Source of the DNA: a virus
Taxonomy: Duplodnaviria; Heunggongvirae; Uroviricota; Caudoviricetes
Length of the DNA: 32,015 bases
Strand: one strand, 5' to 3'
Virus record (IMG/VR): IMGVR_UViG_2706794662_000017
Positions 3,238-26,828 of the stretch are shown here, in pieces. A model generated the notes under the pieces. The model was given only the letters and a program-made list of their open reading frames with translations, was not told the DNA's origin and ran no database searches. Numbering within the stretch: position 1 is the stretch's first letter; each line of letters opens with the position of its first letter. The position numbers were made by a program, and so were the translations under genes.

Positions 3238-3478
3238 GTATTCGTATTGAAATTGGCGAACGTTATGTCGTTACCAGTGACAGCTTCCAGTTTATTCTCC
3301 ACGAGAAAAAGAGAGCGGAAAGCGGTAAAAACGCCGGTCAGGAATGGCTAGCGGTGGTTGGTTATTACCCGAAATTAAGCCAGCTCGTTTCCGGCCTGAT
3401 GCATCACGATATTCTGACCGGAAGCGCAAAGTCTTTTGCTGATTTAAACGCGCAGGTTGAGCAACTCAGCAAGCGTTG
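3234..3478 (+). CDS. Hypothetical early protein (P2 orf83 position), 3' end lost in masked region
   Basis: ORF starts ATG 3234 and runs into the N-run at 3479; the true end is unknown. Confidence 0.4.
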
Positions 3479-3755
3479 NNNNNNNNNNNNNNNNNNNNNN
3501 NNNNNNNNNNNNNNNNNNNNNNNNNNNNNNNNNNNNNNNNNNNNNNNNNNNNNNNNNNNNNNNNNNNNNNNNNNNNNNNNNNNNNNNNNNNNNNNNNNNN
3601 NNNNNNNNNNNNNNNNNNNNNNNNNNNNNNNNNNNNNNNNNNNNNNNNNNNNNNNNNNNNNNNNNNNNNNNNNNNNNNNNNNNNNNNNNNNNNNNNNNNN
3701 NNNNNNNNNNNNNNNNNNNNNNNNNNNNNNNNNNNNNNNNNNNNNNNNNNNNNNN
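3479..3755. other. Run of N (277 nt, masked or unsequenced)
   Basis: Literal N characters; hides the orf83 end and the start of A. Confidence 1.
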
Positions 3756-5830
3756 TCCGGCGCAATAAAAGCCCGGTGCACGGGTTTTATTTCCTCACAT
3801 CCACTTTTCAGCGTCGTTTATGGCCGCGCATTGAGCGTGTGAATCAGCGCCATGAAATGAACACCGACGCGTCGATGCTGTTTCTGGCTGAGCGTGACCA
3901 CTATGCGCGCCTGCCGGGAATGAATGACAAGGAGCTGAAAAAGTTTGCCGCCCGTATCTCATCGCAGCTTTTCATGATGTATGAGGAACTCAGCGATGCC
4001 TGGGTGGATGCGCATGGCGAAAAAGAATCGCTGTTTACGGATGAGGCGCAGGCTCACCTCTATGGTCATGTTGCTGGCGCTGCACGTGCTTTCAATATTT
4101 CCCCTCTCTACTGGAAAAAATACCGTAAAGGACAGATGACCACGAGGCAGGCATATTCTGCCATTGCCCGTCTGTTTAACGATGAGTGGTGGATTAGTCA
4201 GCTTAAAGGCCAGCGTATGCGCTGGCATGAGGCGTTACTGATTGCTGTCGGGGAGGTCAATAAAGACCGTTCTCCTTATGCCAGTAAACATGCCATTCGT
4301 GATGTGCGTGCACGCCGCCAGGCAAATCTGGAATTTCTTAAATCGTGTGATCTCGAAAACAGGGAAACAGGCGAGCGCATCGACCTTATCAGTAAGGTGA
4401 TGGGCAGTATTTCTAATCCTGAAATTCGCCGGATGGAGCTGATGAACACCATTGCCGGTATTGAGCGTTACGCCGCCGCAGAAGGTGATGTGGGGATGTT
4501 TATCACGCTGACCGCGCCGTCAAAGTATCACCCGACACGTCAGGTTGGAAAAGGCGAAAGTAAAACCGTCCAGCTAAATCACGGCTGGAACGATGAGGCA
4601 TTTAATCCAAAGGATGCGCAGCGTTATCTCTGCCGTATCTGGAGCCTGATGCGCACGGCATTCAAGGATAATGATTTACAGGTCTACGGTTTGCGAGTCG
4701 TCGAGCCACACCACGACGGAACGCCGCACTGGCATATGATGCTTTTTTGTAATCCACGCCAGCGTAACCAGATTATCGAAATCATGCGTCGCTACGCGCT
4801 CAAAGAGGATGGCGACGAAAGAGGAGCTGCGCGAAACCGTTTTCAGGCAAAACATCTTAATCGGGGCGGTGCTGCGGGGTATATCGCGAAATACATCTCA
4901 AAAAATATCGACGGCTATGCACTGGATGGGCAGCTCGATAACGATAGCGGCAGACCGCTGAAAGATACTGCCGCGGCTGTTACCGCATGGGCGTCAACGT
5001 GGCGCATTCCGCAATTTAAAACGGTTGGCCTGCCGACAATGGGGGCTTACCGTGAACTACGCAAATTGCCTCGCGGCGTCAGCATTGCTGATGAGTTTGA
5101 CGAGCGCGTCGAGGCTGCACGCGCCGCCGCAGACAGTGGTGATTTTGCGCTGTATATCAGCGCGCAGGGTGGGGCAAATGTCCCGCGCGATTGTCAGACT
5201 GTCAGGGTCGCCCGTAGTCCGTCGGATGAAGTTAACGAGTACGAGGAAGAAGTCGAGAGAGTGGTCGGCATTTACGCGCCGCATCTCGGCGCGCGTCATA
5301 TTCATATCACCAGAACGACGGACTGGCGCATTGTTCCGAAAGTGCCGGTCGTTGAGCCTTTGACTTTAAAAAGCGGCATCGCCGCGCCTCGGAGTCCTGT
5401 CAATAACTGTGGAAAGCTCACTGGTGGTGATACTTCGTTACCGGCTCCCACACCTTCTGAGCACGCCGCAGCAGTGCTTAATCTGGTAGATGACGGTGTT
5501 ATCGAATGGAATGACCCGGAGGTTGTGAGGGCGCTCAGAGGTGCATTAAAACACGGACTGAGAAGACCAAACCGTCAGCAAAGAAACGGAAGCCCGTTAA
5601 AACCGCATGAAATAGCGCCATCGGCCAGACTGACCCGGTCGGAACGAATGCAAATTACCCGTATCCGCGTTGACCTTGCTCAGAACGGTATCAGGCCGCA
5701 GCGATGGGAGCTTGAGGTGCTGGCGCGTGGGGCAACCGTAAATTATGACGGGAAAAAATTCACTTACCCGCTCGCTGATGAGTGGTCGGGATTCTCAACA
5801 GTATTAGAGTCAAACTCAGTGAAGCGTTAA
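3545..5830 (+). CDS. A: Replication initiation protein A (P2 gpA-like rolling-circle nickase); start lies inside the masked region
   Basis: Readable portion 3756..5830 resembles P2 gpA as I recall it; HUH-type motif (TPHWHMM) and downstream tyrosine motif (YIAKYISK); start estimated assuming a P2-length protein and an exact-length N-run. Confidence 0.85.
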   Translation, partial: XXXXXXXXXXXXXXXXXXXXXXXXXXXXXXXXXXXXXXXXXXXXXXXXXXXXXXXXXXXXXXXXXXXXXXXRRNKSPVHGFYFLTSTFQRRLWPRIERVNQRHEMNTDASMLFLAERDHYARLPGMNDKELKKFAARISSQLFMMYEELSDAWVDAHGEKESLFTDEAQAHLYGHVAGAARAFNISPLYWKKYRKGQMTTRQAYSAIARLFNDEWWISQLKGQRMRWHEALLIAVGEVNKDRSPYASKHAIRDVRARRQANLEFLKSCDLENRETGERIDLISKVMGSISNPEIRRMELMNTIAGIERYAAAEGDVGMFITLTAPSKYHPTRQVGKGESKTVQLNHGWNDEAFNPKDAQRYLCRIWSLMRTAFKDNDLQVYGLRVVEPHHDGTPHWHMMLFCNPRQRNQIIEIMRRYALKEDGDERGAARNRFQAKHLNRGGAAGYIAKYISKNIDGYALDGQLDNDSGRPLKDTAAAVTAWASTWRIPQFKTVGLPTMGAYRELRKLPRGVSIADEFDERVEAARAAADSGDFALYISAQGGANVPRDCQTVRVARSPSDEVNEYEEEVERVVGIYAPHLGARHIHITRTTDWRIVPKVPVVEPLTLKSGIAAPRSPVNNCGKLTGGDTSLPAPTPSEHAAAVLNLVDDGVIEWNDPEVVRALRGALKHGLRRPNRQQRNGSPLKPHEIAPSARLTRSERMQITRIRVDLAQNGIRPQRWELEVLARGATVNYDGKKFTYPLADEWSGFSTVLESNSVKR

Positions 5831-5916
5831 CTCAATAAATATGAGTTTATAAGTTAGGCCTCGAGATTTTGTAGAAAGGGATGTATACTGAGTATCGTAT
5901 AGATTTGGAGTGAGTG

Positions 5917-6939
5917 ATGACTGTAAAGGTGATAGACCTTTTTTGTGGTGCTGGCGGATTAACTCATGGTTTGCAGCTTGCGGGGCTTGATGTCGTTGCA
6001 GGCATTGACCTTGAGGGGGAATGTAGGTTTCCCTATGAAAGAAACAATAAATCTAAGTTTATTGAGCAAGATATCGCTAAAGTAACAAAAGAGGAACTGC
6101 TGAGGCTTTATGGTGATGCGTCTGTAAAAGTATTGGCAGGATGCGCACCTTGCCAACCTTTTTCAAAATATACTCAAGGAAAAGATAAGGCTGATGATAA
6201 AAAATGGCCTCTTCTTTATGAGTTCGAACGTTTAATTCGCGAAGTATCTCCAGAAATCGTAACAATGGAGAACGTTCCTGATGTAACTAAACATAAAGTT
6301 TATAATGATTTTTATAATTCATTGTTAAAGTTGGGCTATTATGTTTGGGCGTCTAAGATTGATTGTGTCGAATATGGAATCCCACAAAACCGTTCCCGTC
6401 ATGTATTGTTGGCCTCAAAATTGGGGGCGATTGAGTTAGTAAAACGTGACGATGTTATTTTGAAAACAGTTAGAGATGCAATAGGAAATCTTCCTCCATT
6501 AGAAGATGGCCAAACAGATCCAAATGATATATTACATAGAGCCAGTAAATTAAATCCGATTAATAAAAAAAGAATTATACACTCTGTTCCTGGTGGTACA
6601 TGGAAGGACTGGCCGAAAGAGTTGGTTGCCGCTTGTCATATGAAATCCAGCGGTAAAGGGTATGCTAGTGTATATGGGCGCATGTCTTGGGATAAGCCAA
6701 GTCCAACAATTACAACTCTTTGTTATGGTTTCGGGAATGGGCGTTTTGGACATCCAGAACAGCATAGAGCGATTTCTCTTAGAGAGGCTGCTTTATTGCA
6801 AACTTTCCCGATGGATTATATTTTTGTAGAAGACAAAAACAAGTTTGTTATAAGAAGTATTGGGAAAATGATAGGTAATGCTGTTCCTGTGGAACTAGGA
6901 AAAGCAATTGGGCAATCAATCAAGAACCATTTAGAATGA
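5917..6939 (+). CDS. DNA (cytosine-5)-methyltransferase, complete, no adjacent restriction endonuclease recognised
   Basis: Motif I DLFCGAGG, motif IV PCQPFS (catalytic Cys), motif VI ENV, motif VIII QNRSR, motif X GNAVPV; ATG 5917 with GGAG 6 nt upstream; AT-rich relative to the phage backbone. Confidence 0.85.
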   Translation: MTVKVIDLFCGAGGLTHGLQLAGLDVVAGIDLEGECRFPYERNNKSKFIEQDIAKVTKEELLRLYGDASVKVLAGCAPCQPFSKYTQGKDKADDKKWPLLYEFERLIREVSPEIVTMENVPDVTKHKVYNDFYNSLLKLGYYVWASKIDCVEYGIPQNRSRHVLLASKLGAIELVKRDDVILKTVRDAIGNLPPLEDGQTDPNDILHRASKLNPINKKRIIHSVPGGTWKDWPKELVAACHMKSSGKGYASVYGRMSWDKPSPTITTLCYGFGNGRFGHPEQHRAISLREAALLQTFPMDYIFVEDKNKFVIRSIGKMIGNAVPVELGKAIGQSIKNHLE

Positions 6940-6945
6940 TAAAAT

Positions 6946-6962
6946 GGCCTGCTTTACAGGCC
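6946..6962. terminator. Hairpin GGCCTG-CTTTA-CAGGCC between convergent genes (possible bidirectional terminator)
   Basis: Perfect 6-bp stem with 5-nt loop, flanked by A/T-rich sequence, lying between the methyltransferase stop (6939) and the minus-strand gene stop (6969). Confidence 0.35.
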
Positions 6963-6968
6963 TTATAA

Positions 6969-7649
6969 CTATTGTTCTAAATATTCATTATTATTTATAT
7001 AGTGCTCTATATTATTCACGATAGCATCAAGATAGGCGATTACTTCTAATGAAATATTCTCTAAGTCCTGATATGAAACATTTTTTCCAATCTCAGCAAA
7101 TGATACATTGCCATGAGATAAATCATTACGATGTTGTTTAACAGTGGCTAATTTTTCACCATGTTTAGTGTGAGTGTAATCGGAATGTGTAGAAAAACCA
7201 TATATTTTCGATTTTTCTTTGATTTCCTCTCTATCAATATTTCCTGAGAATATTTTCTTTTTGTTGAACGTGCCATAAGATATACCGCAAGATATACCTT
7301 TGGTAAGGTGATTAACTAAACTTTCAACATTTACAGATTCATTTTTTAATCTTTTTAATATTTCTGACCTGAGATTTTTCCTGAGTTTGTCAAATTCTAC
7401 GTTTCTATCATAAATAGTCTCATGAATAAGGCAGATAGCTTCTCTCATTGTTGATTCAATGAGGTTATATAACAGTATATATACTGCTCCCTTTAGAGTT
7501 TTTCGTGATTGAGCAGTAATGGAGAACTTATGTTCTTTATCATCAGCTGATATCAGTTCTGCACCGGCATACTCAATAAATTTCAAAAGATCCAAATAGG
7601 CCAAGATCTCTCCTGACCTTTCGTCAAAATCCTCACGAAAACGATCCAT
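6969..7649 (-). CDS. Hypothetical 226-aa protein with C-terminal Rx4H motif (putative HEPN-like nuclease); second gene of a two-gene operon
   Basis: ATG 7647-7649 with AGAGGA RBS 5 nt upstream, located inside the 3' end of the upstream gene; R-N-D-L-S-H at residues 174-179 (nt 7113-7130); function is inferred from the motif only. Confidence 0.55.
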   Translation of the reverse strand: MDRFREDFDERSGEILAYLDLLKFIEYAGAELISADDKEHKFSITAQSRKTLKGAVYILLYNLIESTMREAICLIHETIYDRNVEFDKLRKNLRSEILKRLKNESVNVESLVNHLTKGISCGISYGTFNKKKIFSGNIDREEIKEKSKIYGFSTHSDYTHTKHGEKLATVKQHRNDLSHGNVSFAEIGKNVSYQDLENISLEVIAYLDAIVNNIEHYINNNEYLEQ

Positions 7650-7650
7650 G

Positions 7651-8793
7651 TTAATCCTCTAATAATTTATCCCGAACATATTCAATTCGTTCAATTACCT
7701 TCACGCGACTATTAGCTCCGTCGGAAGTGGTCAATCGTTTGAATTCTTCTGAGCTTAGCCAATCTAAGTTCTTGGGAACAAGGTCAGGGACTTCACGTAA
7801 TGCAAGTGCTGCGCCAACAGCGAGAGATTCGAATCTAACTCGAGGTGTAGATTTTGCAGTAATAGTTTTCTTGAATCCTGCTGGGAAATAGTTTTCAACA
7901 AAAGATAGAACATTAGCAAACTCTTGTTTCATTGAGTTTTGTTTAGTTTCGTCTATATCTCGATTTTCTGACATATAGTCATTTAGAAAATCCCGTACGG
8001 AATGATCAAAGTTCTTGTACTTATCTACGTAGGCAAAGAATCTTAATGTAAATTCTAACCGTTCATCTCGTTTTTCTTTAGTCTGAGATAAAGGTGCTAA
8101 TTCTTTAAATTTAGGTATTGTTGAGCATGGCTTAATAACCTGTGTATATAAATTTGTTGAACCAAGTTCTGATCCTTTACGGACTTCCATATCTTTCAAT
8201 ATATCGCTGCCAGAGTTAATACGCTCAAAAAGATCTCTACGGGTTTCTTCATTGCATTTAGAACTCAATTCTATAACGCGGACAGGAATTCTCATGAAAC
8301 GACGTTGACGTGATAATGGTAAATCTTGGAATTTGAAACCATTAAGGACGTCTAAAGATTTCAGGTCTTGTAAAACTAATTCATTTTGGATAAAAGCGTG
8401 TATAGTCCTAACTCGTTGTGAGCCATCAACAATCTCAATTCGCCCATCTAAATCGGGATCTTCGGAGAGAACATCTGCTATAAATATATATGGTATAGGA
8501 AAACCCAAAATCAAAGACTCTATCAATTTTGATTGTCTTTTTTCACTCCAAACAAAATCCCTTTGATAATCAGGAACAAAGAGTTCGTTAGTATCATCCT
8601 CTAATCCGTTATGATACTTATTAACTAATAACTCAACGGTAAATTCTTTGGTCTCAAAATCCACATCCTTTTGCTCAGCACGAATTTGCTCTTCAGCGTT
8701 TTGCTTTATCACCTCTAGCTGAGCAAGCAACTCTGCTCTTTTCTTGGCATTATCTTCATTTTCTAGTTGAGATTTTAAATCAATAATGTCCAT
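7651..8793 (-). CDS. DUF262 (ParB/Srx-like, GmrSD N-terminal-type) domain protein; first gene of a two-gene operon
   Basis: Signature motifs FVPDYQRDFVW, GFPIPYIF and IVDGSQRVRTI (DGQQR variant); preferred start ATG 8791-8793 with AGGGA RBS 7 nt upstream (the ORF track extends to a TTG at 8811); stop is 1 nt from the downstream gene start; no DUF1524/HNH-like C-terminal domain recognised. Confidence 0.75.
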   Translation of the reverse strand: MDIIDLKSQLENEDNAKKRAELLAQLEVIKQNAEEQIRAEQKDVDFETKEFTVELLVNKYHNGLEDDTNELFVPDYQRDFVWSEKRQSKLIESLILGFPIPYIFIADVLSEDPDLDGRIEIVDGSQRVRTIHAFIQNELVLQDLKSLDVLNGFKFQDLPLSRQRRFMRIPVRVIELSSKCNEETRRDLFERINSGSDILKDMEVRKGSELGSTNLYTQVIKPCSTIPKFKELAPLSQTKEKRDERLEFTLRFFAYVDKYKNFDHSVRDFLNDYMSENRDIDETKQNSMKQEFANVLSFVENYFPAGFKKTITAKSTPRVRFESLAVGAALALREVPDLVPKNLDWLSSEEFKRLTTSDGANSRVKVIERIEYVRDKLLED

Positions 8794-8978
8794 GTCTAGT
8801 TCCCTTAACAAGTGTTAAAAATTGAAGCGGATAGCATACCGCATAGATCATGAAAAATGCCATCATGTGCATGGATTTGCATGCGTCAGAAGTCGCTTTT
8901 ATTGTTAGTTATCACTAGCGCTGGCGTGCTCTTGGAGTGTTCATGCAACTGCATTAAAACCGCCCCATGAAGCGGGCG

Positions 8979-20311: not shown

Positions 20312-20834
20312 TTCGCGACTGCTGCCGACCGGCTCATCACCGCTTGAAGTTGCCGCCGCAAAAGCCTGTGCGGAAATTGAAAAAACGCCGGTCAGGATTC
20401 GTGAACTGTGGAACCCGGATACCTGTCCGGCAAATCTGCTGCCGTGGCTGGCGTGGGCGTTTTCGGTCGACAGGTGGGATGAAAAGTGGCCGGAAGCGAC
20501 AAAACGCGCCGTTATCCGCGATGCCTATTTCATCCACTGTCATAAAGGCACTATCGGCGCAATCCGGCGTGTGGTGGAGCCGCTCGGCTATCTCATCAAC
20601 GTGACGGAGTGGTGGGAAAACAGTGACCCGCCCGGCACCTTCCGGCTTGATATTGGTGTACTGGAAAGCGGCATCACAGAGGCAATGTATCAGGAAATGG
20701 AACGGCTTATTGCTGATGCCAAACCTGCAAGCCGTCATCTTATTGGCCTGAACATTACCCGGGACATTCCCGGCTACCTGTTCGCCGGTGGTGTGGCTTA
20801 CGACGGCGATGTAATTACGGTTTACCCCGGATAA
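20304..20834 (+). CDS. I: Baseplate protein (P2 gpI)
   Basis: 176 aa, P2 gpI size and position. Confidence 0.9.
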   Translation: MSDSRLLPTGSSPLEVAAAKACAEIEKTPVRIRELWNPDTCPANLLPWLAWAFSVDRWDEKWPEATKRAVIRDAYFIHCHKGTIGAIRRVVEPLGYLINVTEWWENSDPPGTFRLDIGVLESGITEAMYQEMERLIADAKPASRHLIGLNITRDIPGYLFAGGVAYDGDVITVYPG

Positions 20835-20844
20835 GTGAGGAATA

Positions 20845-23163
20845 ATGAGCACAAAATTCAGAACCGTTATCACCACTGCCGGTGCAGCAAAGCTGGCAGC
20901 GGCAACCGCACCGGGAGGGCGGAAGGTCAACATTACCACGATGGCCGTCGGGGATGGCGGTGGTAAATTGCCTGTCCCGGATGCCGGACAGACCGGGCTT
21001 ATCCACGAAGTCTGGCGACATACGCTGAACAAAATCAGCCAGGACAAACGAAACAGTAATTATATTATCGCAGAGCTGGTTATTCCGCCGGAGGTGGGCG
21101 GTTTCTGGATGCGTGAGCTTGGCCTGTACGATGATGCGGGAACGTTAATTGCCGTGGCGAACATGGCCGAAAGTTATAAGCCAGCTCTTGCCGAAGGCTC
21201 AGGGCGTTCGCAGACCTGTCGCATGGTCATCATCGTCAGCAGTGTGGCCTCGGTGGAGCTGACCATTGACACCACAACGGTGATGGCGACACAGGATTAC
21301 GTTGATGACAAAATTGCAGAGCACGAACAGTCACGACGTCACCCGGACGCCTCGCTGACCGCAAAAGGTTTTACTCAGTTAAGCAGTGCGACCAACAGCA
21401 CGTCTGAAACACTGGCCGCAACGCCGAAAGCGGTAAAGGCCGCCTATGACCTTGCTAACGGGAAATATACCGCACAGGACGCTACCACAGCTCGAAAAGG
21501 TCTTGTCCAGCTCAGTAGTGCCACCAACAGCACGTCTGAAACGCTTGCGGCAACGCCAAAGGCGGTTAAGACAGCGTATGACCTTGCTAACGGGAAATAC
21601 ACTGCACAGGACGCCACTACAGCGCGAAAAGGTCTTGTCCAGCTCAGTAGCGCCACCAACAGCGATTCTGAAACGCTTGCGGCAACACCAAAGGCGGTTA
21701 AGACAGCGTATGACCTTGCTAACGGGAAATACACTGCACAGGATGCCACCACAGCGCGAAAAGGTCTTGTCCAGCTAAGTAGTGCCATCAACAGCGATTC
21801 TGAAACGCTGGCCGCAACGCCAAAAGCAGTGAAGTCTGCCTATGACAATGCTGAAAAACGTCTTCAGAAAGATCAGAACGGTGCGGATATTCCGGGAAAG
21901 GATACCTTCACGAAAAATATCGGTGCCTGTCGTGCTTATAGCGGCGCTTTGAGCACTGAAGCCGGAAACTGGACAACCGCTCAGTTTATTGAATGGCTGG
22001 ATTCCCGTGGTGCATTTAATCATCCGTACTGGATGTGCAAAGGCTCCTGGTCATATGCAAATAACAAAATCATTACGGATACCGGATGTGGTGATATCCA
22101 CCTGGCTGGTTGTGTCGTCGAGGTCATGGGAACTAAATCTGCAATCACTATCCGAGTGACCACGCCAACAACATCAAGCGGTGGCGGTACAACCAGCGCG
22201 CAATTCACTTACATAAATCATGGGGACGGCTACTCCCCCGGCTGGCGTCGTGACTGGAATCGTCAGGGCGACTCAATGACCGGAACGATTAATCAGGATG
22301 GCGGAAGCCAGAATGCCTATATGTCTACGGCCTTATGTTCAGGCACCAGAGGCGGCAAAAAATATCTCAGAAAGTTTCGTGGTGGAGAAGGAGATACTAT
22401 CTGGCATGAAACAGTTCAGGGCGGGGTAATTCGCTGGGCGACAGGAAACAATGACGCTCAGGAAGAATTATCACTCAGCTCCGCTTATGGTCTCCGTTCA
22501 AGAGGTGAAATTACATCACTCAGTGCTAATGGTCTGCGCATTGCTTATGGCAATTATGGATTCTTTATCAGGAATGATGGCGGCAGCACATATTTAATGC
22601 TGACGGCCTCTGGCGATAAATTTGGGACATGGAACGGCTTAAGACCGCTGACTATCAATAACGCCAATGGCGGAGTGTCAATGGGGCATGGCCTGAGTGT
22701 TACAGGTGATATTGTCTCAAGTACCAAAGTACGTGCCGGTAGCGGGAAAAAGTTCACGGTCAGCAGCAGCAATACATCCACGAAGGAAGCCGCATTCAAT
22801 TTGTGGGGAAACTCAAGTCGTCCTGTGGTGGCTGAATTAGGTGATGATGCAGGCTGGCATTTTTACAGTCAGAGAAATACAGATAACAGCATCACTTTTG
22901 CTGTTAACGGGCAGGTATCACCATCTAACTATGGCAACTTTGATTCACGCTATGTCCGGGATATCCGGCTTGGTGGTGCTGCCACATACAAACCTGCGAA
23001 CAATGGTATGACATGGACACATCAGGCACCGTCCGGGTGTGTATATTCCGGCATTATTGTTCAGGATACCGGCTCAAACTCTGCCGATAACATTGGTGGC
23101 GTATATTACAGACCGGTGCAGAAATACATTAACGGGACTTGGTATAACGTGGCACAGGTATAA
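20845..23163 (+). CDS. H: Tail fibre protein (P2 gpH-like) with internal tandem repeats
   Basis: 772 aa; conserved gpH-like N-terminus (MSTKFRTVITTAGAAKLAAATAPGG); repeat block in the middle and a C-terminal region I do not recognise from P2. Confidence 0.9.
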   Translation: MSTKFRTVITTAGAAKLAAATAPGGRKVNITTMAVGDGGGKLPVPDAGQTGLIHEVWRHTLNKISQDKRNSNYIIAELVIPPEVGGFWMRELGLYDDAGTLIAVANMAESYKPALAEGSGRSQTCRMVIIVSSVASVELTIDTTTVMATQDYVDDKIAEHEQSRRHPDASLTAKGFTQLSSATNSTSETLAATPKAVKAAYDLANGKYTAQDATTARKGLVQLSSATNSTSETLAATPKAVKTAYDLANGKYTAQDATTARKGLVQLSSATNSDSETLAATPKAVKTAYDLANGKYTAQDATTARKGLVQLSSAINSDSETLAATPKAVKSAYDNAEKRLQKDQNGADIPGKDTFTKNIGACRAYSGALSTEAGNWTTAQFIEWLDSRGAFNHPYWMCKGSWSYANNKIITDTGCGDIHLAGCVVEVMGTKSAITIRVTTPTTSSGGGTTSAQFTYINHGDGYSPGWRRDWNRQGDSMTGTINQDGGSQNAYMSTALCSGTRGGKKYLRKFRGGEGDTIWHETVQGGVIRWATGNNDAQEELSLSSAYGLRSRGEITSLSANGLRIAYGNYGFFIRNDGGSTYLMLTASGDKFGTWNGLRPLTINNANGGVSMGHGLSVTGDIVSSTKVRAGSGKKFTVSSSNTSTKEAAFNLWGNSSRPVVAELGDDAGWHFYSQRNTDNSITFAVNGQVSPSNYGNFDSRYVRDIRLGGAATYKPANNGMTWTHQAPSGCVYSGIIVQDTGSNSADNIGGVYYRPVQKYINGTWYNVAQV
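21364..21852 (+). repeat. Tandem in-frame repeat inside H, ~3.7 copies of a 132-nt (44-aa) unit
   Basis: Unit starts at 21364, 21496, 21628 and 21760; encodes K/RGxxQLSSATNSxSETLAATPKAVKxAYDLANGKYTAQDATTA (phage tail-fibre repeat type). Confidence 0.85.
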
Positions 23164-23166
23164 TTT

Positions 23167-23694
23167 ATGCAGCATTTGATAAATATAACGGCAGGTAATC
23201 CAAAAACGGTTGAACAATATCAATTGACAAAGGACTTTGATGTTGTCTGGTTTTTTTCAGAAGATGGTAAGAACTGGTACGAAGAACAAAAGTATTTTGC
23301 TGATGACACGATAAAAATAGCGTACGACAAAGATAATATTATCCGCTATGTGGAAAAGGATGTGACAGCTATCAGACCGGATGGATTAAGTGTTGTTGAA
23401 GTGCCGGATATTACTGCTAACCGACGGGCGGACATTTCAGGGAACTGGATGTTTAAGGACTGTACAGTGATTAAACGAATTTATACGGCAGAGGAATTGC
23501 AGCAGCAGGCAGAAAATCGGAAAGCCAGACTTCTTGCAGATGCTGAATCCGTGATTTTGCCGCTGGAGCGCGCTGTCAGGCTGAATATGGCAACAGATGA
23601 GGAGCGCAGTCGACTGGAGGCATGGGAACGCTACAGTGTTCTGGTCAGTCGTGTGGATCCTGCAAATCCTGAATGGCCGGAAATGCCGCAATAA
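23167..23694 (+). CDS. G: Tail fibre assembly chaperone (P2 gpG)
   Basis: 175 aa; N- and C-termini (MQHL..., ...[13 protein letters not shown]) match P2 gpG as I recall it. Confidence 0.85.
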
Positions 23695-23776
23695 GTTGTA
23701 TGAGCTCTGGTGTGAGCTTACATATCTATGGCACAGAGTAAAGCCTAATCTGAGAGTCCGCTCTGTGCCAGAAGTA

Positions 23777-23805
23777 GACGCACAAGGTGGGCGTGTCTTT
23801 TTCTT
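23777..23805 (+). terminator. Putative rho-independent terminator after the V-G late operon
   Basis: GC-rich imperfect hairpin GACGCAC...GGCGTGTC followed by TTTTTCTT on the plus strand, between the G stop and the convergent cargo gene. Confidence 0.35.
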
Positions 23806-23808
23806 AAG

Positions 23809-25227
23809 CTACATCGGGCTCTTATATGGGGAATGAGAGTTTTTGAAACGCGGTTCTTCATGCTTCGGACTGTAAATTCTTGCATGATTATCTATCACAA
23901 CTTTACTTCCAAGAATATCTCGAGCTTCTCCTAACGACCACACAGTAGAAAGATCATTAGTCAAATTTCGATAGAGAGCACGAAACCCCTTGGGTTTTTT
24001 AAGATCATATAAGAAATCAGGAACTTTAACTTTAAAATTAAAGGTCGGTAGTTTCGGAAGGGAATTAATAGCCGCAACAGTATTGTATACATGTACAAGC
24101 TTAGTTACAGGTACACCTTGTCTAGTCTTGAGCCCATACTTAGTTCGAATATAATCTGATTCTTTCGATACTTCAGTAAGCAATGCTCTTACTGACTTAT
24201 TAGCTTGAGGCAATTCATTTTCATCAAACAAGCGCTTTATTTCTCGCATTTTCTCACGGGCCCTTACAAATTCGTTGTTGTCCCTTATGTTATAAGCAGC
24301 TTCAACAATACAACTTGGATCACCAGTTTCTTTTGCGAGCCATGCCGAAAATAAAGGAAGCGAAGTTGCTGTTGCTACAGCTTTACCACCAGAATGAATA
24401 TCAATGAGATCATGACTTAACGAAGTGGAAAAGTTTTCTACAATATGTTTAGCATAGTCAAAACCATACTGACAGTTTTGGCTTAAATATGTCTGTTGAT
24501 ACGCCTGACGTAATGGATATAAAAAAGTATCTGCTTGAAGGTACTTAGCTGTGAGAGAATAAAATACTGCCCGATTAGCCAGCCATACAAGCGAAGCCAC
24601 GAATGCTTTGATTGCATCTGATGCTTCACCAGCAGATGTGCCATCCCCCCATTTTGCTCCGGGAACTTTGTACCCCTTGCGAATAGGGTTGCCAAATCGA
24701 TCGAGAAGTTCAACATCGCCATTTGTTCTATTACCAGACTCAGCAGCATCACGCAGTTCTGAAAAAATGGCAGCAGCAATGTTACCATATTTTTCAAACT
24801 CCTTACCTCCATCAGATAAGTTCTTCAGTGTTAGATGATAAACACTTGAACTAATGTCCCATGTACATATGATATGTGTCTGAAGAAGTTCAATTAGTTT
24901 TTTAAAATCGTCATTAACAAATGTTCCACCACGAATTTTAGGTTTCAATGCATCAGATATTTTTTTTGCTTCACTTTCAATTTCATCCAACCCATATTGT
25001 GCTTTATCAAGAAATAATATCTCTCTGAAACTTGAAATCCTACTCCCACGGTACTCTGGAATATAATCATCAACCGCGATAACGTGATCATAGAACAAAA
25101 TAGACTGTATATAGTTCTCAAATGCTATTATGTCTGTATCTACTGAGTCCTTCGATCTTGTTTTTACTTTCCCCTCGATTCTTTGGACTGCAGTTAGAGT
25201 TGAATTATCAATCAGTGCGTATGTCAT
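23809..25227 (-). CDS. Hypothetical 472-aa protein, AT-rich cargo gene at the P2 Z/fun variable locus; function unknown
   Basis: Long uninterrupted minus-strand ORF antisense to both flanking late operons; ATG 25225-25227 with AAGGAA RBS 5 nt upstream; no P2 structural counterpart; no catalytic motif recognised with confidence. Confidence 0.7.
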   Translation of the reverse strand: MTYALIDNSTLTAVQRIEGKVKTRSKDSVDTDIIAFENYIQSILFYDHVIAVDDYIPEYRGSRISSFREILFLDKAQYGLDEIESEAKKISDALKPKIRGGTFVNDDFKKLIELLQTHIICTWDISSSVYHLTLKNLSDGGKEFEKYGNIAAAIFSELRDAAESGNRTNGDVELLDRFGNPIRKGYKVPGAKWGDGTSAGEASDAIKAFVASLVWLANRAVFYSLTAKYLQADTFLYPLRQAYQQTYLSQNCQYGFDYAKHIVENFSTSLSHDLIDIHSGGKAVATATSLPLFSAWLAKETGDPSCIVEAAYNIRDNNEFVRAREKMREIKRLFDENELPQANKSVRALLTEVSKESDYIRTKYGLKTRQGVPVTKLVHVYNTVAAINSLPKLPTFNFKVKVPDFLYDLKKPKGFRALYRNLTNDLSTVWSLGEARDILGSKVVIDNHARIYSPKHEEPRFKNSHSPYKSPM

Positions 25228-25496
25228 TTACATTCCTTAAATAAAAAACATTAATGGTTGCTCCAAAAATACTAGCAACCTTATTTCAGTGAAGTCAATT
25301 TTTTAACATTAATCATTTACACACGCTTGAAAAGTGATCGCTGAAAATGGCATTTACTACATTATCAAAGTTCCCATCGAAGATAATCGAAATTTTTCCC
25401 GGTAGCAGATATCGTGAGATTTAACGCTTTTCGCTCATAGCAGGCTGTCAGATTTGATAGCGTTTGGGCTATGTAAACTGTCAGTCGGAAAATGAG

Positions 25497-25514
25497 TGTG
25501 TACAAATCAGGACA
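25497..25514 (+). promoter_or_regulatory. TGT-N12-ACA dyad, candidate Ogr-dependent late promoter element upstream of FI
   Basis: Exact TGT(25497-25499)-N12-ACA(25512-25514) about 125 nt upstream of the FI start; a dyad of this form centred near -55 is the reported P2 late promoter element. Confidence 0.3.
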
Positions 25515-25545
25515 TGCGGGCGAATTGCCCGCATTTTCTTTATCT
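25514..25545 (+). other. Perfect palindrome ATGCGGGCGAATTGCCCGCAT followed by TTTTCTTT (terminator-like hairpin, or a binding site)
   Basis: 8-bp stem with 5-nt loop plus T-rich tract, read directly; role unclear because it lies between the putative late promoter dyad and FI. Confidence 0.3.
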
Positions 25546-25637
25546 GTTGTTTCATCCACTGACCAGCCAGGTCAAATAGCGTCTCATGCACTGCCCAACA
25601 GAAAATAGTTGCACCCATTAACCACGGAGTTAAACGG

Positions 25638-26828
25638 ATGAGTGACTATCATCACGGCGTGCAGGTGCTGGAGATTAACGACGGCACCCGCGTCATTTCC
25701 ACCGTATCCACTGCCATTGTCGGCATGGTCTGCACGGCCAGCGATGCGGATGCGGAAACCTTCCCCCTCAATAAACCGGTGCTGATTACCAATGTGCAGA
25801 GCGCAATTGCAAAGGCCGGTAAAAAAGGCACGCTGGCGGCATCGTTGCAGGCCATCGCCGACCAGTCAAAACCGGTCACCGTTGTCGTGCGTGTGGAAGA
25901 CGGCACCGGCGACGACGAGGAAACGAAACTCGCGCAGACCGTTTCCAATATCATCGGCACCACCGACGAAAACGGTCAGTACACCGGACTGAAAGCCCTG
26001 CTGGCGGCGGAGTCGGTAACCGGTGTTAAACCGCGTATTCTCGGCGTGCCGGGACTGGACACCAAAGAGGTGGCTGTTGCACTGGCATCAGTCTGTCAGA
26101 AGCTGCGCGCTTTCGGGTATATCAGCGCATGGGGCTGTAAGACCGTTTCCGAGGTGAAAGCCTACCGTCAGAATTTCAGCCAGCGTGAGCTGATGGTCAT
26201 CTGGCCGGATTTCCTCGCATGGGATACGGTCGCCAGTACCACCGCCACCGCGTATGCCACCGCCCGTGCGCTGGGTCTGCGCGCTAAAATCGACCAGGAG
26301 CAGGGCTGGCATAAAACGCTGTCCAACGTCGGGGTGAACGGTGTTACCGGCATCAGCGCGTCCGTATTCTGGGATTTGCAGGAGTCCGGCACCGATGCTG
26401 ACCTGCTTAACGAGTCAGGCGTCACAACGCTGATTCGCCGTGACGGTTTCCGCTTCTGGGGTAACCGTACCTGCTCTGATGACCCGCTGTTCCTCTTTGA
26501 AAACTACACCCGCACCGCGCAGGTGCTGGCCGACACGATGGCTGAGGCGCACATGTGGGCGGTGGACAAGCCCATCACCGCAACGCTGATTCGCGACATC
26601 GTTGACGGCATCAATGCCAAATTCCGTGAGCTGAAAACAAACGGCTATATCGTGGATGCGACCTGCTGGTTCAGCGAAGAATCCAACGATGCGGAAACCC
26701 TCAAGGCCGGAAAACTGTATATCGACTACGACTATACCCCGGTGCCTCCTCTTGAAAACCTGACCCTGCGCCAGCGTATTACCGATAAATACCTGGCAAA
26801 TCTGGTCACCTCGGTTAACAGCAATTAA
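25638..26828 (+). CDS. FI: Tail sheath protein (P2 gpFI)
   Basis: 396 aa, P2 gpFI size and position. Confidence 0.95.
   Translation: MSDYHHGVQVLEINDGTRVISTVSTAIVGMVCTASDADAETFPLNKPVLITNVQSAIAKAGKKGTLAASLQAIADQSKPVTVVVRVEDGTGDDEETKLAQTVSNIIGTTDENGQYTGLKALLAAESVTGVKPRILGVPGLDTKEVAVALASVCQKLRAFGYISAWGCKTVSEVKAYRQNFSQRELMVIWPDFLAWDTVASTTATAYATARALGLRAKIDQEQGWHKTLSNVGVNGVTGISASVFWDLQESGTDADLLNESGVTTLIRRDGFRFWGNRTCSDDPLFLFENYTRTAQVLADTMAEAHMWAVDKPITATLIRDIVDGINAKFRELKTNGYIVDATCWFSEESNDAETLKAGKLYIDYDYTPVPPLENLTLRQRITDKYLANLVTSVNSN

Follow-up and report, generated by a model that had tools for sequence, protein, structure and literature searches.

A copy-number-variable 132-nucleotide repeat array and a modular distal half in tail fibre gene H of a P2-like prophage

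The window, by which we mean the whole stretch of 32,015 nucleotides that was analysed (IMG/VR virus record IMGVR_UViG_2706794662_000017), contains a tail fibre gene and its chaperone gene in a P2-type setting. The open reading frames between 18419 and 23694 follow the order V-W-J-I-H-G of the late operon, as in P2 (gpH/gpG, NC_001895) and in the RefSeq annotation of the prophage in the closed E. coli genome BS15R-A; genes for an integrase, gpA and the tail sheath are also present in the window, and 3' of G there is one 472-aa ORF followed by the sheath gene. The two genes and the attachment domain are located as follows:

20845..23163, + strand: gene H, P2-type tail fibre protein of 772 aa, assigned from the ORF, synteny and the Pfam families PF12571, PF03406 and PF21446
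20845..21297, + strand: N-terminal tail-collar / baseplate-attachment domain of H, aa 1-151 (Phage_tail_fib, PF12571, E 2.8e-58)
23167..23694, + strand: gene G, tail fibre assembly chaperone of 175 aa (Caudo_TAP, PF02413, E 2.8e-33; PHROG 136)

Because synteny and domains both match, we identify the pair as P2 H and G, and we consider it highly probable that the locus belongs to an intact P2-like (Peduovirus-type) prophage and that H is a trimeric tail fibre; this judgement covers our explanation as a whole, that is, the identity of the locus, the repeat array, its copy-number polymorphism and the modular distal half, along with the steps of recombination, length setting and joining that we propose below. 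In a Pfam scan the PF12571 match spans the full profile length, and the attachment domain is 94-99% identical to P2 H at the nucleotide level, a degree of identity that holds over the N-terminal 240 aa. A PDB search with the N-terminal domain alone gave no match. By homology to P2 H, to H of phage P88 (PMC5285337) and to Mu S (PDB 5yvq), the protein would form the virion tail fibre and bind the host receptor. Along gene H the GC content drops from 0.59 to 0.49 and then to 0.40.

A tandem array of four units separates the baseplate-attachment domain from the distal domains:

21361..21492, + strand: repeat unit 1, 44 aa, AKGFTQLSSATNSTSETLAATPKAVKAAYDLANGKYTAQDATTA; 81.8% nt identity to unit 2; first PF03406 stretch
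21493..21624, + strand: repeat unit 2, 44 aa; missing from the 728-aa, three-copy allele of locus L028
21625..21756, + strand: repeat unit 3, 44 aa; 94.7% nt identity to unit 2
21757..21846, + strand: repeat unit 4, partial, first 30 aa; runs into the 'DNAEKRLQKDQNGADIP' junction common to Mu fibre protein S

An earlier note on this DNA had described about 3.7 in-frame copies of a 132-nt unit in H, and this description holds, with three 44-aa units and a fourth of 30 aa inside the 772-aa ORF. Tandem Repeats Finder reports a period of 132 nt and 3.5 copies over 21385-21846 (89% matches, no indels, score 686), a direct-repeat search finds three 226-nt copies at 132-nt spacing over 21363-21852, and the array is the sole direct repeat of at least 40 nt in the window. 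The Pfam family Phage_fiber_2 (PF03406), a repeat of ~42 aa, scores 257.3 bits in H against a cut-off of 22, in four stretches, the best of which (aa 170-210) covers profile positions 1-41 of 42. What did not stand up is the claim that all units are near-identical: only units 2 and 3 are (~95% nt identity, 7 nt differences, longest in-register exact run 56 nt), while identity between units ranges from 78 to 95% (7-29 differing positions), with units 3 and 4 at 86.7% across their common 90 nt. The 24 nt differences between units 1 and 2 amount to 15 synonymous and 4 non-synonymous codon changes; since 15 of the 19 differing codons are synonymous, the protein sequence of the unit is under constraint. 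Two ORFs within the array (21446-21778 on the + strand, 21444-21791 on the - strand) were dismissed as periodic read-through artefacts.

Unit 4 and the junction align with residues 99-174 of the Mu S chains 5yvq and 8ju3, and a PDB search with the array alone returned only such single-unit Mu S chains, and no structure with more than one Phage_fiber_2 unit. An AlphaFold2 monomer prediction for aa 152-353 (linker and array; 13-row alignment), a segment of a fibre that is an intertwined trimer, gave a low-confidence model, with a mean pLDDT of 46 and a pTM of 0.23. Our literature search for the structure or copy-number variation of PF03406 yielded domain listings and one modelling paper from 2021, which treats the family as being without a solved structure, and no account of either subject.

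It is very unlikely that the four-copy array is an assembly artefact in which near-identical repeats have been collapsed or expanded. In favour of such an artefact, identity between units 2 and 3 reaches 95%, and many public homologues are 'partial' proteins that end inside gene H, which indicates that short-read assemblies often break there. However, the units are distinguishable, because 7-29 positions differ between them, and the closed genome BS15R-A differs by at most 1 nt over the array and the upstream gene. A further locus (L013) is 100% identical where it was compared, in each of the four units as well as over 516 nt at the 5' end and 1275 nt at the 3' end, and the identical 772-aa protein is found on 772 public contigs under the name 'MULTISPECIES: tail fiber protein [Enterobacteriaceae]'. 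At least 80% of H plus G lies in one place in 146 complete E. coli genomes; among the matches listed (40 of those 146) the alignment is gapless over all 2850 nt, with one over 2849.

P2 H is 669 aa long, as the earlier note had stated, against 772 aa here; two additional units account for 88 aa of the 103-aa excess, and a longer distal part for the other 15. To call the array expanded is apt relative to P2, which has two motif copies, but not among close relatives, where four copies are the commonest state (33 of 64 distinct proteins). Alignment with relatives shows that copy number is not identical across all of them: P2 has two copies, P37 and fiAA91-ss three, and vB_YpM_46 four, while the range is 2-6 among 120 database proteins and 1-5 among 112 loci, these sets being database clusters and IMG/VR contigs and hence non-independent samples. 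In six allelic series, 772/728 and 764/720 among them, the downstream sequence is the same and successive lengths are exactly 44 aa apart, and the flanks of the 728-aa L028 allele are 99.6% and 98.7% identical to the window. For a BLAST query across the array, the spans in the closed E. coli genomes H147, H150 and H152-154 imply one or two units fewer (among the matches listed, 60 of 2396 records; these are spans, not a clean unit count). The array is a genuine and stable part of a widespread allele, and its copy number is polymorphic in the family.

As to how units change, recombination or slippage had both been proposed. Recombinational gain and loss is supported by the one-unit alleles on near-identical flanks, whereas classical slipped-strand mispairing is not indicated for a unit of 132 nt. 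Since the window and L028 differ in copy number on near-identical flanks, events within the array take place without module exchange. The units are patchworks of each other: among alleles with the window-type C-terminus the divergence between units 2 and 3 ranges from 0 to 20 nt, and the central segment of unit 2, which carries unit-3-type polymorphisms in the window, is of unit-1 type in two other 772-aa alleles examined (L052, L072) and partly so in another (L057). Judged from these sequences, unequal homologous recombination or gene conversion would explain the patchworks better than slipped-strand mispairing. We suggest that neighbouring units recombine unequally or convert one another, so that units would be gained, lost and homogenised, and the 56-nt exact run of units 2 and 3 should suffice for such recombination. 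Each unit would add a fixed increment to the proximal shaft, with fibre length set by copy number; such an effect on fibre length is plausible. The conserved repeat may in addition provide the homology at which distal modules of P2-, Mu- and lambda-type fibres are joined.

Downstream of the array, the following features make up the distal half of H and the adjoining part of G:

21844..22305, + strand: first part of the middle module, aa 334-487; a homologue of the variable portion of S', the fibre protein of Mu G(-)
22462..22656, + strand: T4 gp34-type trimerisation domain, aa 540-604 (Gp34_trimer, PF21446, E 4.7e-24; PDB 4uxe, 5nxh)
22933..22968, + strand: conserved motif FDSRYVRDIRLG, aa 697-708; left crossover point of the tip/chaperone cassette
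22969..23103, + strand: variable tip segment, aa 709-753; aligns with the P88 hypervariable region HR2 (P88 aa 716-746)
23104..23163, + strand: conserved C-terminal end YRPVQKYINGTWYNVAQV and stop codon; last 16 aa identical in four phages
23167..23550, + strand: N-terminal domain of G, variable, aa 1 to ~128; forms the right side of the cassette

The region 21900-23163 had been thought to be unlike P2 H and to represent a swapped receptor-binding domain matched to G, and both statements are true in part. The stretch 21800-22750 is unrelated to P2 and the tip at 22950-23100 is divergent, but 22750-22950 retains ~72% identity, with 13-16 differences in each 50 nt, and the 16 C-terminal residues are the same as in P2. 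Distal exchange is supported, as is a tip that travels with its chaperone; the region is nonetheless not one single swapped domain, and consists of at least two independently exchanged modules and conserved segments common to P2. In the middle module, aa 334-487 match residues 177-332 of PDB 8ju3 (phmmer, domain E 1.8e-69) and are 96-100% identical at the nucleotide level to the Yersinia phages P37 and vB_YpM_46; the C-terminus of Mu S is matched by aa 544-771 (E 1.4e-41). Read from the sequence, the distal half of H is modular, with a Mu S'/S-related middle block and a tip/chaperone cassette that is moved as one piece.

Comparison with known systems places this H among several mosaics. P2 gpH/gpG shares the W-J-I-H-G locus, the Phage_fiber_2 units, the FDSRYV..RLG motif and the last 16 aa of H, as well as a 175-aa G with a conserved C-terminal third; it differs in that the second of its two motif copies is truncated after KAVKT, its middle region is unrelated, its tip is divergent, and its G has a different N-terminal domain (75% aa identity overall). 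H of vB_YpM_46 (764 aa), of the BS15R-A prophage (764 aa) and of P37 (720 aa) has the same N-terminus and the same Mu S'/S-related middle module, and the first two have the same four-copy array, unlike P37 with its three units; BS15R-A differs from the window by only ~10 nt over 20845-22900. In all three, nevertheless, the tip is near the P2 type and G has an N-terminal domain of P2 type, giving a dense block of differences at 22930-23550. Conversely, fiAA91-ss (NC_022750) has the same tip and G cassette, with 94-99% nt identity in 90-nt bins from 23005 and 87% in the boundary bin 22915-23004, but its H is 692 aa long, with three units, and has another middle region, unrelated over nt 22250-22900. 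Mu S (gp49, PDB 5yvq with the chaperone Tfa) and S' (PDB 8ju3) have a Phage_fiber_2 unit followed by the same 'DNA..RL.KD.NGADIP' junction as here, as well as Tfa-type chaperones; in contrast to the window, Mu has a single unit and an invertible G segment that switches two fibre and chaperone sets, and neither an invertase nor an alternative set is present in the window. P88 and pro147 (PMC5285337) encode H homologues of P2-like phages with hypervariable C-terminal regions; P88 (genus Xuanwuvirus) differs in having three units, another N-terminal sequence, and an invertase with an alternative fibre set.

The cassette of ~620 nt (22930-23550) comprises the H tip and the N-terminal domain of the chaperone. 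BS15R-A and vB_YpM_46 begin to differ from the window at ~22930-22950, which is also where identity to fiAA91-ss starts, and the dense differences stop at ~23550. The motif at the left border is kept in P2, P37, P88 and Mu S. The 16 residues at the C-terminus of H, identical in P2, P37, vB_YpM_46 and fiAA91-ss, are conserved in Mu S as well. Between these conserved parts, the tip segment is of the fiAA91-ss type, and it is here that the GC content falls to 0.40. Swapping the P88 tip region HR2 alters host range (PMC5285337), and by alignment with that region aa 709-753 are the probable determinant of receptor specificity. G shows 93% aa identity to its fiAA91-ss counterpart and 75-77% to those of P2, P37 and vB_YpM_46. 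In the Mu chaperone a variable N-terminal domain binds the fibre tip, while trimerisation is driven by a conserved C-terminal one (PMC9608196); G, with its variable N-terminal part and conserved C-terminal third, shows a pattern that agrees with this. In all of 72 H-G pairs (35/35 and 37/37) the type of the H tip goes with that of the G N-terminal domain. Since the H tip and G lie next to each other, part of this agreement could be due to linkage and not to functional matching.

A different way of looking at the array is to regard the repeat chiefly as a conserved recombination adaptor, and not as a spacer that sets length, for module swaps among P2-like, Mu-like and lambdoid phages, with copy-number differences as neutral by-products. 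Module junctions do fall within units, P2 diverging straight after the KAVKT of unit 2 and the Mu-S-type junction following the KAVKS of the last unit; the unit also occurs in Mu S, once, and the P2-type junction always comes with two copies. Among the matches listed, the repeat is found at ~87% nt identity in 'prophage tail fiber N-terminal domain' genes including stfR, the Rac prophage side tail fibre, which we take to be lambdoid. That copy-number differences are neutral by-products fits poorly with a copy number that differs between the window and L028 where both flanks are near-identical, and with a strong synonymous bias by which the protein sequence of every unit is maintained. We regard this reading as possible, if somewhat unlikely; it is compatible with our main explanation of a recombining, length-setting array and does not exclude it.

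The repeats might themselves be adhesive and bind surface polysaccharide, copy number tuning avidity rather than length, but this is quite improbable: the array adjoins the baseplate-attachment domain and is distant from the distal tip, its sequence is nearly invariant across phages of E. coli, Yersinia, Citrobacter and Enterobacter, and host range in P88 has been traced to the tip segment instead of the repeats (PMC5285337). Least likely of all, to the point of being barely conceivable, is a contingency (phase-variation) locus in which slipped-strand mispairing toggles fibre expression. A tandem repeat in a surface-interaction gene would suit such a locus; however, 132 nt is 3 x 44, so that all copy numbers seen (2-6) keep the frame and a complete C-terminus, the units are 5-22% diverged and not perfect short repeats, and an invertase, flanking inverted repeats or a second direct repeat are absent. 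Among the alleles compared, no population was seen in which a copy-number change shifts the frame or abolishes H. Two other diversifying systems were rejected as candidates: an invertible segment of the Mu G / P1 C type, as there are no meaningful inverted repeats in 20500-26000 and no alternative fibre set 3' of G, and a diversity-generating retroelement of the BPP-1 Mtd type, as the window has no second direct repeat of at least 40 nt besides the 132-nt array. No reverse transcriptase was detected when H, G and seven further ORFs of the window were scanned against Pfam.

The repeat family, tail-fibre mosaicism and this very protein have already been catalogued, and the protein, like this type of repeat and module shuffling, is frequent in public genomes of E. 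coli and Shigella; as a discovery the locus matters little. It is of some practical use as a natural map of where P2-type fibres may be cut and rejoined, namely within the 44-aa units, at the FDSRYV..RLG motif and near residue 128 of G, with the tip having to move together with the N-terminal domain of its chaperone. These cut points and the tip/chaperone pairing could be useful for host-range engineering of P2-like phages and tailocins, and the allelic series of 2-6 units is a ready test set for the relation of shaft length to adsorption.

Copy number correlates negatively with distal length (Spearman -0.52), which is a hint only, since the sequences are related. One could speculate that copy number is selected to hold fibre length within a working range after distal swaps, a shorter distal part going with more units; we think this rather unlikely, and if it were true, the array would be an adjustable spacer that lets otherwise mismatched modules work.

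The 772-aa ORF at 20845-23163 (+) is gene H of a complete P2-like prophage, and gene G comes next: the ORFs ahead of it correspond to P2 V, W, J and I, and the window also carries a phage integrase, the P2 replication protein gpA and tail sheath genes. The Pfam assignments were as follows.

Pfam domains of H and G
H aa 1-151: tail-collar fibre N-terminal domain, PF12571, E 2.8e-58
H, four stretches: Phage_fiber_2, PF03406, curated as "phage tail fibre repeat", 257 bits (cut-off 22)
H aa 540-604: T4 gp34-type trimerisation domain, PF21446
23167-23694, the ORF next after H: G, Caudo_TAP tail-fibre assembly chaperone

H is a widespread, well-annotated allele of a textbook mosaic gene, and its repeat family is already curated; the exact protein is public on 772 contigs under the name "MULTISPECIES: tail fiber protein [Enterobacteriaceae]". 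P2 H has 669 aa, as the earlier note had stated, and of the 103 residues by which the window's protein exceeds it, 88 come from two additional repeat units and 15 from a slightly longer distal part. The GC content declines along the gene, from 0.59 through 0.49 to 0.40.

Tandem Repeats Finder places the array at 21385-21846 (132-nt period, 3.5 copies, 89% matches, 0 indels, score 686), while a direct repeat search returned three 226-nt copies at 132-nt spacing in 21363-21852, and no other direct repeats of at least 40 nt in the 32-kb window. The array is in frame within the H ORF, with units defined at the protein level.

Repeat units of H
start 21361 (+): unit 1, full, 44 aa
start 21493 (+): unit 2, full, 44 aa
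start 21625 (+): unit 3, full, 44 aa
start 21757 (+): unit 4, partial; first 30 residues kept, then unlike sequence

The original estimate of about 3.7 copies was thus accurate, but the units are less uniform than it implied: units 2 and 3 differ at 7 nt (94.7% identity, longest in-register exact run 56 nt), units 3 and 4 at 12 nt of the 90 in common (86.7%), and units 1 and 2 at 24 nt (81.8%), with 15 synonymous and 4 non-synonymous codon changes. Since synonymous changes are in excess between units, the comparison shows the protein sequence of every unit to be under constraint. Two ORFs of 110-115 aa inside the array, 21444-21791 (-) and 21446-21778 (+), owe their existence solely to the periodicity of the repeat and its lack of stop codons, and are not genes to annotate.

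When unit counts are compared across related H genes, copy number is found to vary widely, from 2 to 6.

Motif copies in H and its relatives
P2: 2
P37 and fiAA91-ss: 3 each
vB_YpM_46: 4
best 120 database proteins: 2 to 6
64 distinct complete H alleles (IMG/VR, GTDB, phage records): 2 (n=17), 3 (n=9), 4 (n=33), 5 (n=5)

The array, which had been called expanded, is so only relative to the two copies of P2; among relatives four copies is the commonest state. Several allele series step by exactly 44 aa with the same downstream sequence (772/728, 764/720, 736/692, 749/705, 709/665/621 and 701/657 aa), and the window's unit 2 is missing from the 728-aa allele of locus L028, whose two flanks match the window at 99.6% and 98.7% identity. 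Among alleles with the window's type of C-terminus, the divergence of units 2 and 3 lies anywhere between 0 nt (L031) and 20 nt (L035), and the centre of the window's unit 2 carries unit-3-type polymorphisms where loci L052 and L072 have the unit-1 type and L057 is intermediate. These patterns are those expected when unequal homologous recombination and gene conversion act within the array, and it is from them that we infer the mechanism. In the 736-aa allele of L031 (IMGVR_UViG_3300045988_127872), units 2 and 3 are identical over all 132 nt, pointing to duplication or conversion in the very recent past. Across the 64 distinct H alleles from L001-L116, copy number shows a weak negative correlation with the length of protein that follows the array (Spearman -0.52, p about 1e-5; -0.35 without the two-copy class); as the sequences are related and not independent, this is no more than a lead, a hint of length compensation between array and distal part.

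Other origins for the array and its variation were considered. An assembly artefact appears very unlikely, given that an IMG/VR contig (L013) is 100% identical to the window over the regions compared, that 146 complete E. coli genomes hold no less than 80% of H+G at a single site, with 40 of them listed as gapless full-length alignments (2850 nt, one 2849; 97-98% identity), and that the closed E. coli BS15R-A genome departs from the window at ~10 nt over 20845-22900, at most 1 of these within the array. A phase-variation switch is rejected because all copy numbers keep the reading frame intact, and a diversity-generating retroelement is excluded because a second repeat copy is absent. An invertible fibre segment of the Mu, P1 or P88 type is likewise excluded; the window contains no invertase, alternative fibre set or flanking inverted repeats.

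E. coli short-read assemblies are routinely broken within H, probably owing to fibre modules common to several prophages of one genome, and relatives of H among the 120 public protein matches are mostly "partial" entries ending at varied points of the mosaic distal half. An enterobacterial H of P2 type (74-85% aa identity) is also present in three GTDB genome records that bear the labels Chryseobacterium sp. 18061, Vagococcus sp. WN89Y and Collinsella MAG (L105, L111, L113); contamination or misbinning of these assemblies is the likeliest explanation.

Binned nucleotide identity between the window and the four comparison phages plus BS15R-A divides H and G as follows.

Module map of H and G
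20845 to about 21565: N-terminus and first units; P2-like, 89-99%
21900-22915: middle module; P37 and vB_YpM_46 96-100%, P2 mostly unrelated, 63-79% from about 22735
22750-22950: pre-tip segment; P2 about 72% identical, 13-16 differences per 50 nt, conserved FDSRYVRDIRLG motif at end
22930-23550: H aa 696-772 and G aa 1 to about 128; fiAA91-ss near-identical, 1-4 differences per 50 nt; BS15R-A, vB_YpM_46 and P2 densely different
23550 onwards: remainder of G; conserved in all compared

What had been described as one divergent C-terminal domain is, on these alignments, several separate pieces. Two stretches have solved matches in phage Mu: for residues 334-487, in the middle module, it is the G(-) fibre protein S' (PDB 8ju3; domain E 1.8e-69), and for residues 544-771 the fibre protein S (PDB 5yvq; E 1.4e-41).

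Among 72 H-G pairs, the window's tip type occurs with its own G N-terminal type in 35/35 cases and other tip types with the other G type in 37/37, while the C-terminal part of G forms one single cluster. Both features fit the published model of the Mu chaperone, where the variable N-terminal domain binds the tip and the conserved C-terminal domain drives trimerisation (PMC9608196). Physical adjacency of tip and G also contributes to this co-occurrence, so the association falls short of proving functional matching. In phage P88, experimental replacement of hypervariable region HR2 altered host range (PMC5285337), and it is with this region that the window's variable tip segment, aa 709-753, aligns. 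Pairing and alignment together support, for the ~620-nt cassette and not for the whole of 21900-23163, the proposal that the receptor-binding part was swapped and is matched to G. Over 20845-23694, BS15R-A (NZ_CP063349.1) shows ~10 nt differences from the window up to 22900, dense differences in 22930-23550 and near-identity afterwards; this is an unusually clean natural cassette swap on one backbone.

The order of domains, the polymorphic array, the boundaries between modules and the linkage of tip and chaperone are established, and a working of the fibre can be proposed around them. The fibre would be a trimer whose proximal shaft is made of the units, each adding a fixed length; G may nucleate folding, starting at the C-terminal tip; and the tip, by its homology to Mu and P2 fibres, would bind the cell surface, probably LPS. 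LPS is the receptor of P2. Mu fibres bind it as well (PMC11915804). A PDB search found no solved structure with more than one Phage_fiber_2 unit, and in a 2021 modelling paper the family counted as structurally unsolved (PMC8078820). An AlphaFold monomer model of the array region reached only pLDDT 46 and was uninformative. Mu S contains the unit once; it recurs, with an nt identity of about 87%, in genes whose annotation reads 'prophage tail fiber N-terminal domain', including stfR (the Rac prophage side tail fibre), which we take to be lambdoid. Together with the location of module junctions inside repeat units, this suggests that the repeat probably also provides homology for distal-module exchange between phage families, an idea of which Haggård-Ljungquist et al. 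(1992) and Sandmeier (1994) are reportedly early sources.

The earlier observation is thus confirmed and its interpretation partly supported. The 2-6-unit allelic series and the tip/chaperone cassette with its sharp boundaries make neat examples and are of use in engineering; a specialist would not be surprised by them.

Elsewhere in the window, a cargo block at 5914-8811, downstream of gpA (3476-5830), looks like a defence or modification island in the old/tin slot of P2.

Genes of the cargo block
5914-6939 (+): C-5 cytosine DNA methylase
6969-7649 (-): HEPN_MAE_28990 protein
7651-8811 (-): GmrSD_N/DUF262 protein

Between G and the sheath gene lies an AT-rich ORF of 472 aa, 23809-25227 (-), with a GC content of 0.33-0.39 compared to about 0.55-0.59 in its neighbours; in P2 this slot is occupied by fun(Z) instead. 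It has no Pfam or PADLOC match, its sole match being PHROG 13435 ('unknown function'). We regard it as a candidate lysogenic-conversion or anti-phage cargo gene; the exact protein is found on at least 1000 contigs of E. coli and Shigella sonnei.
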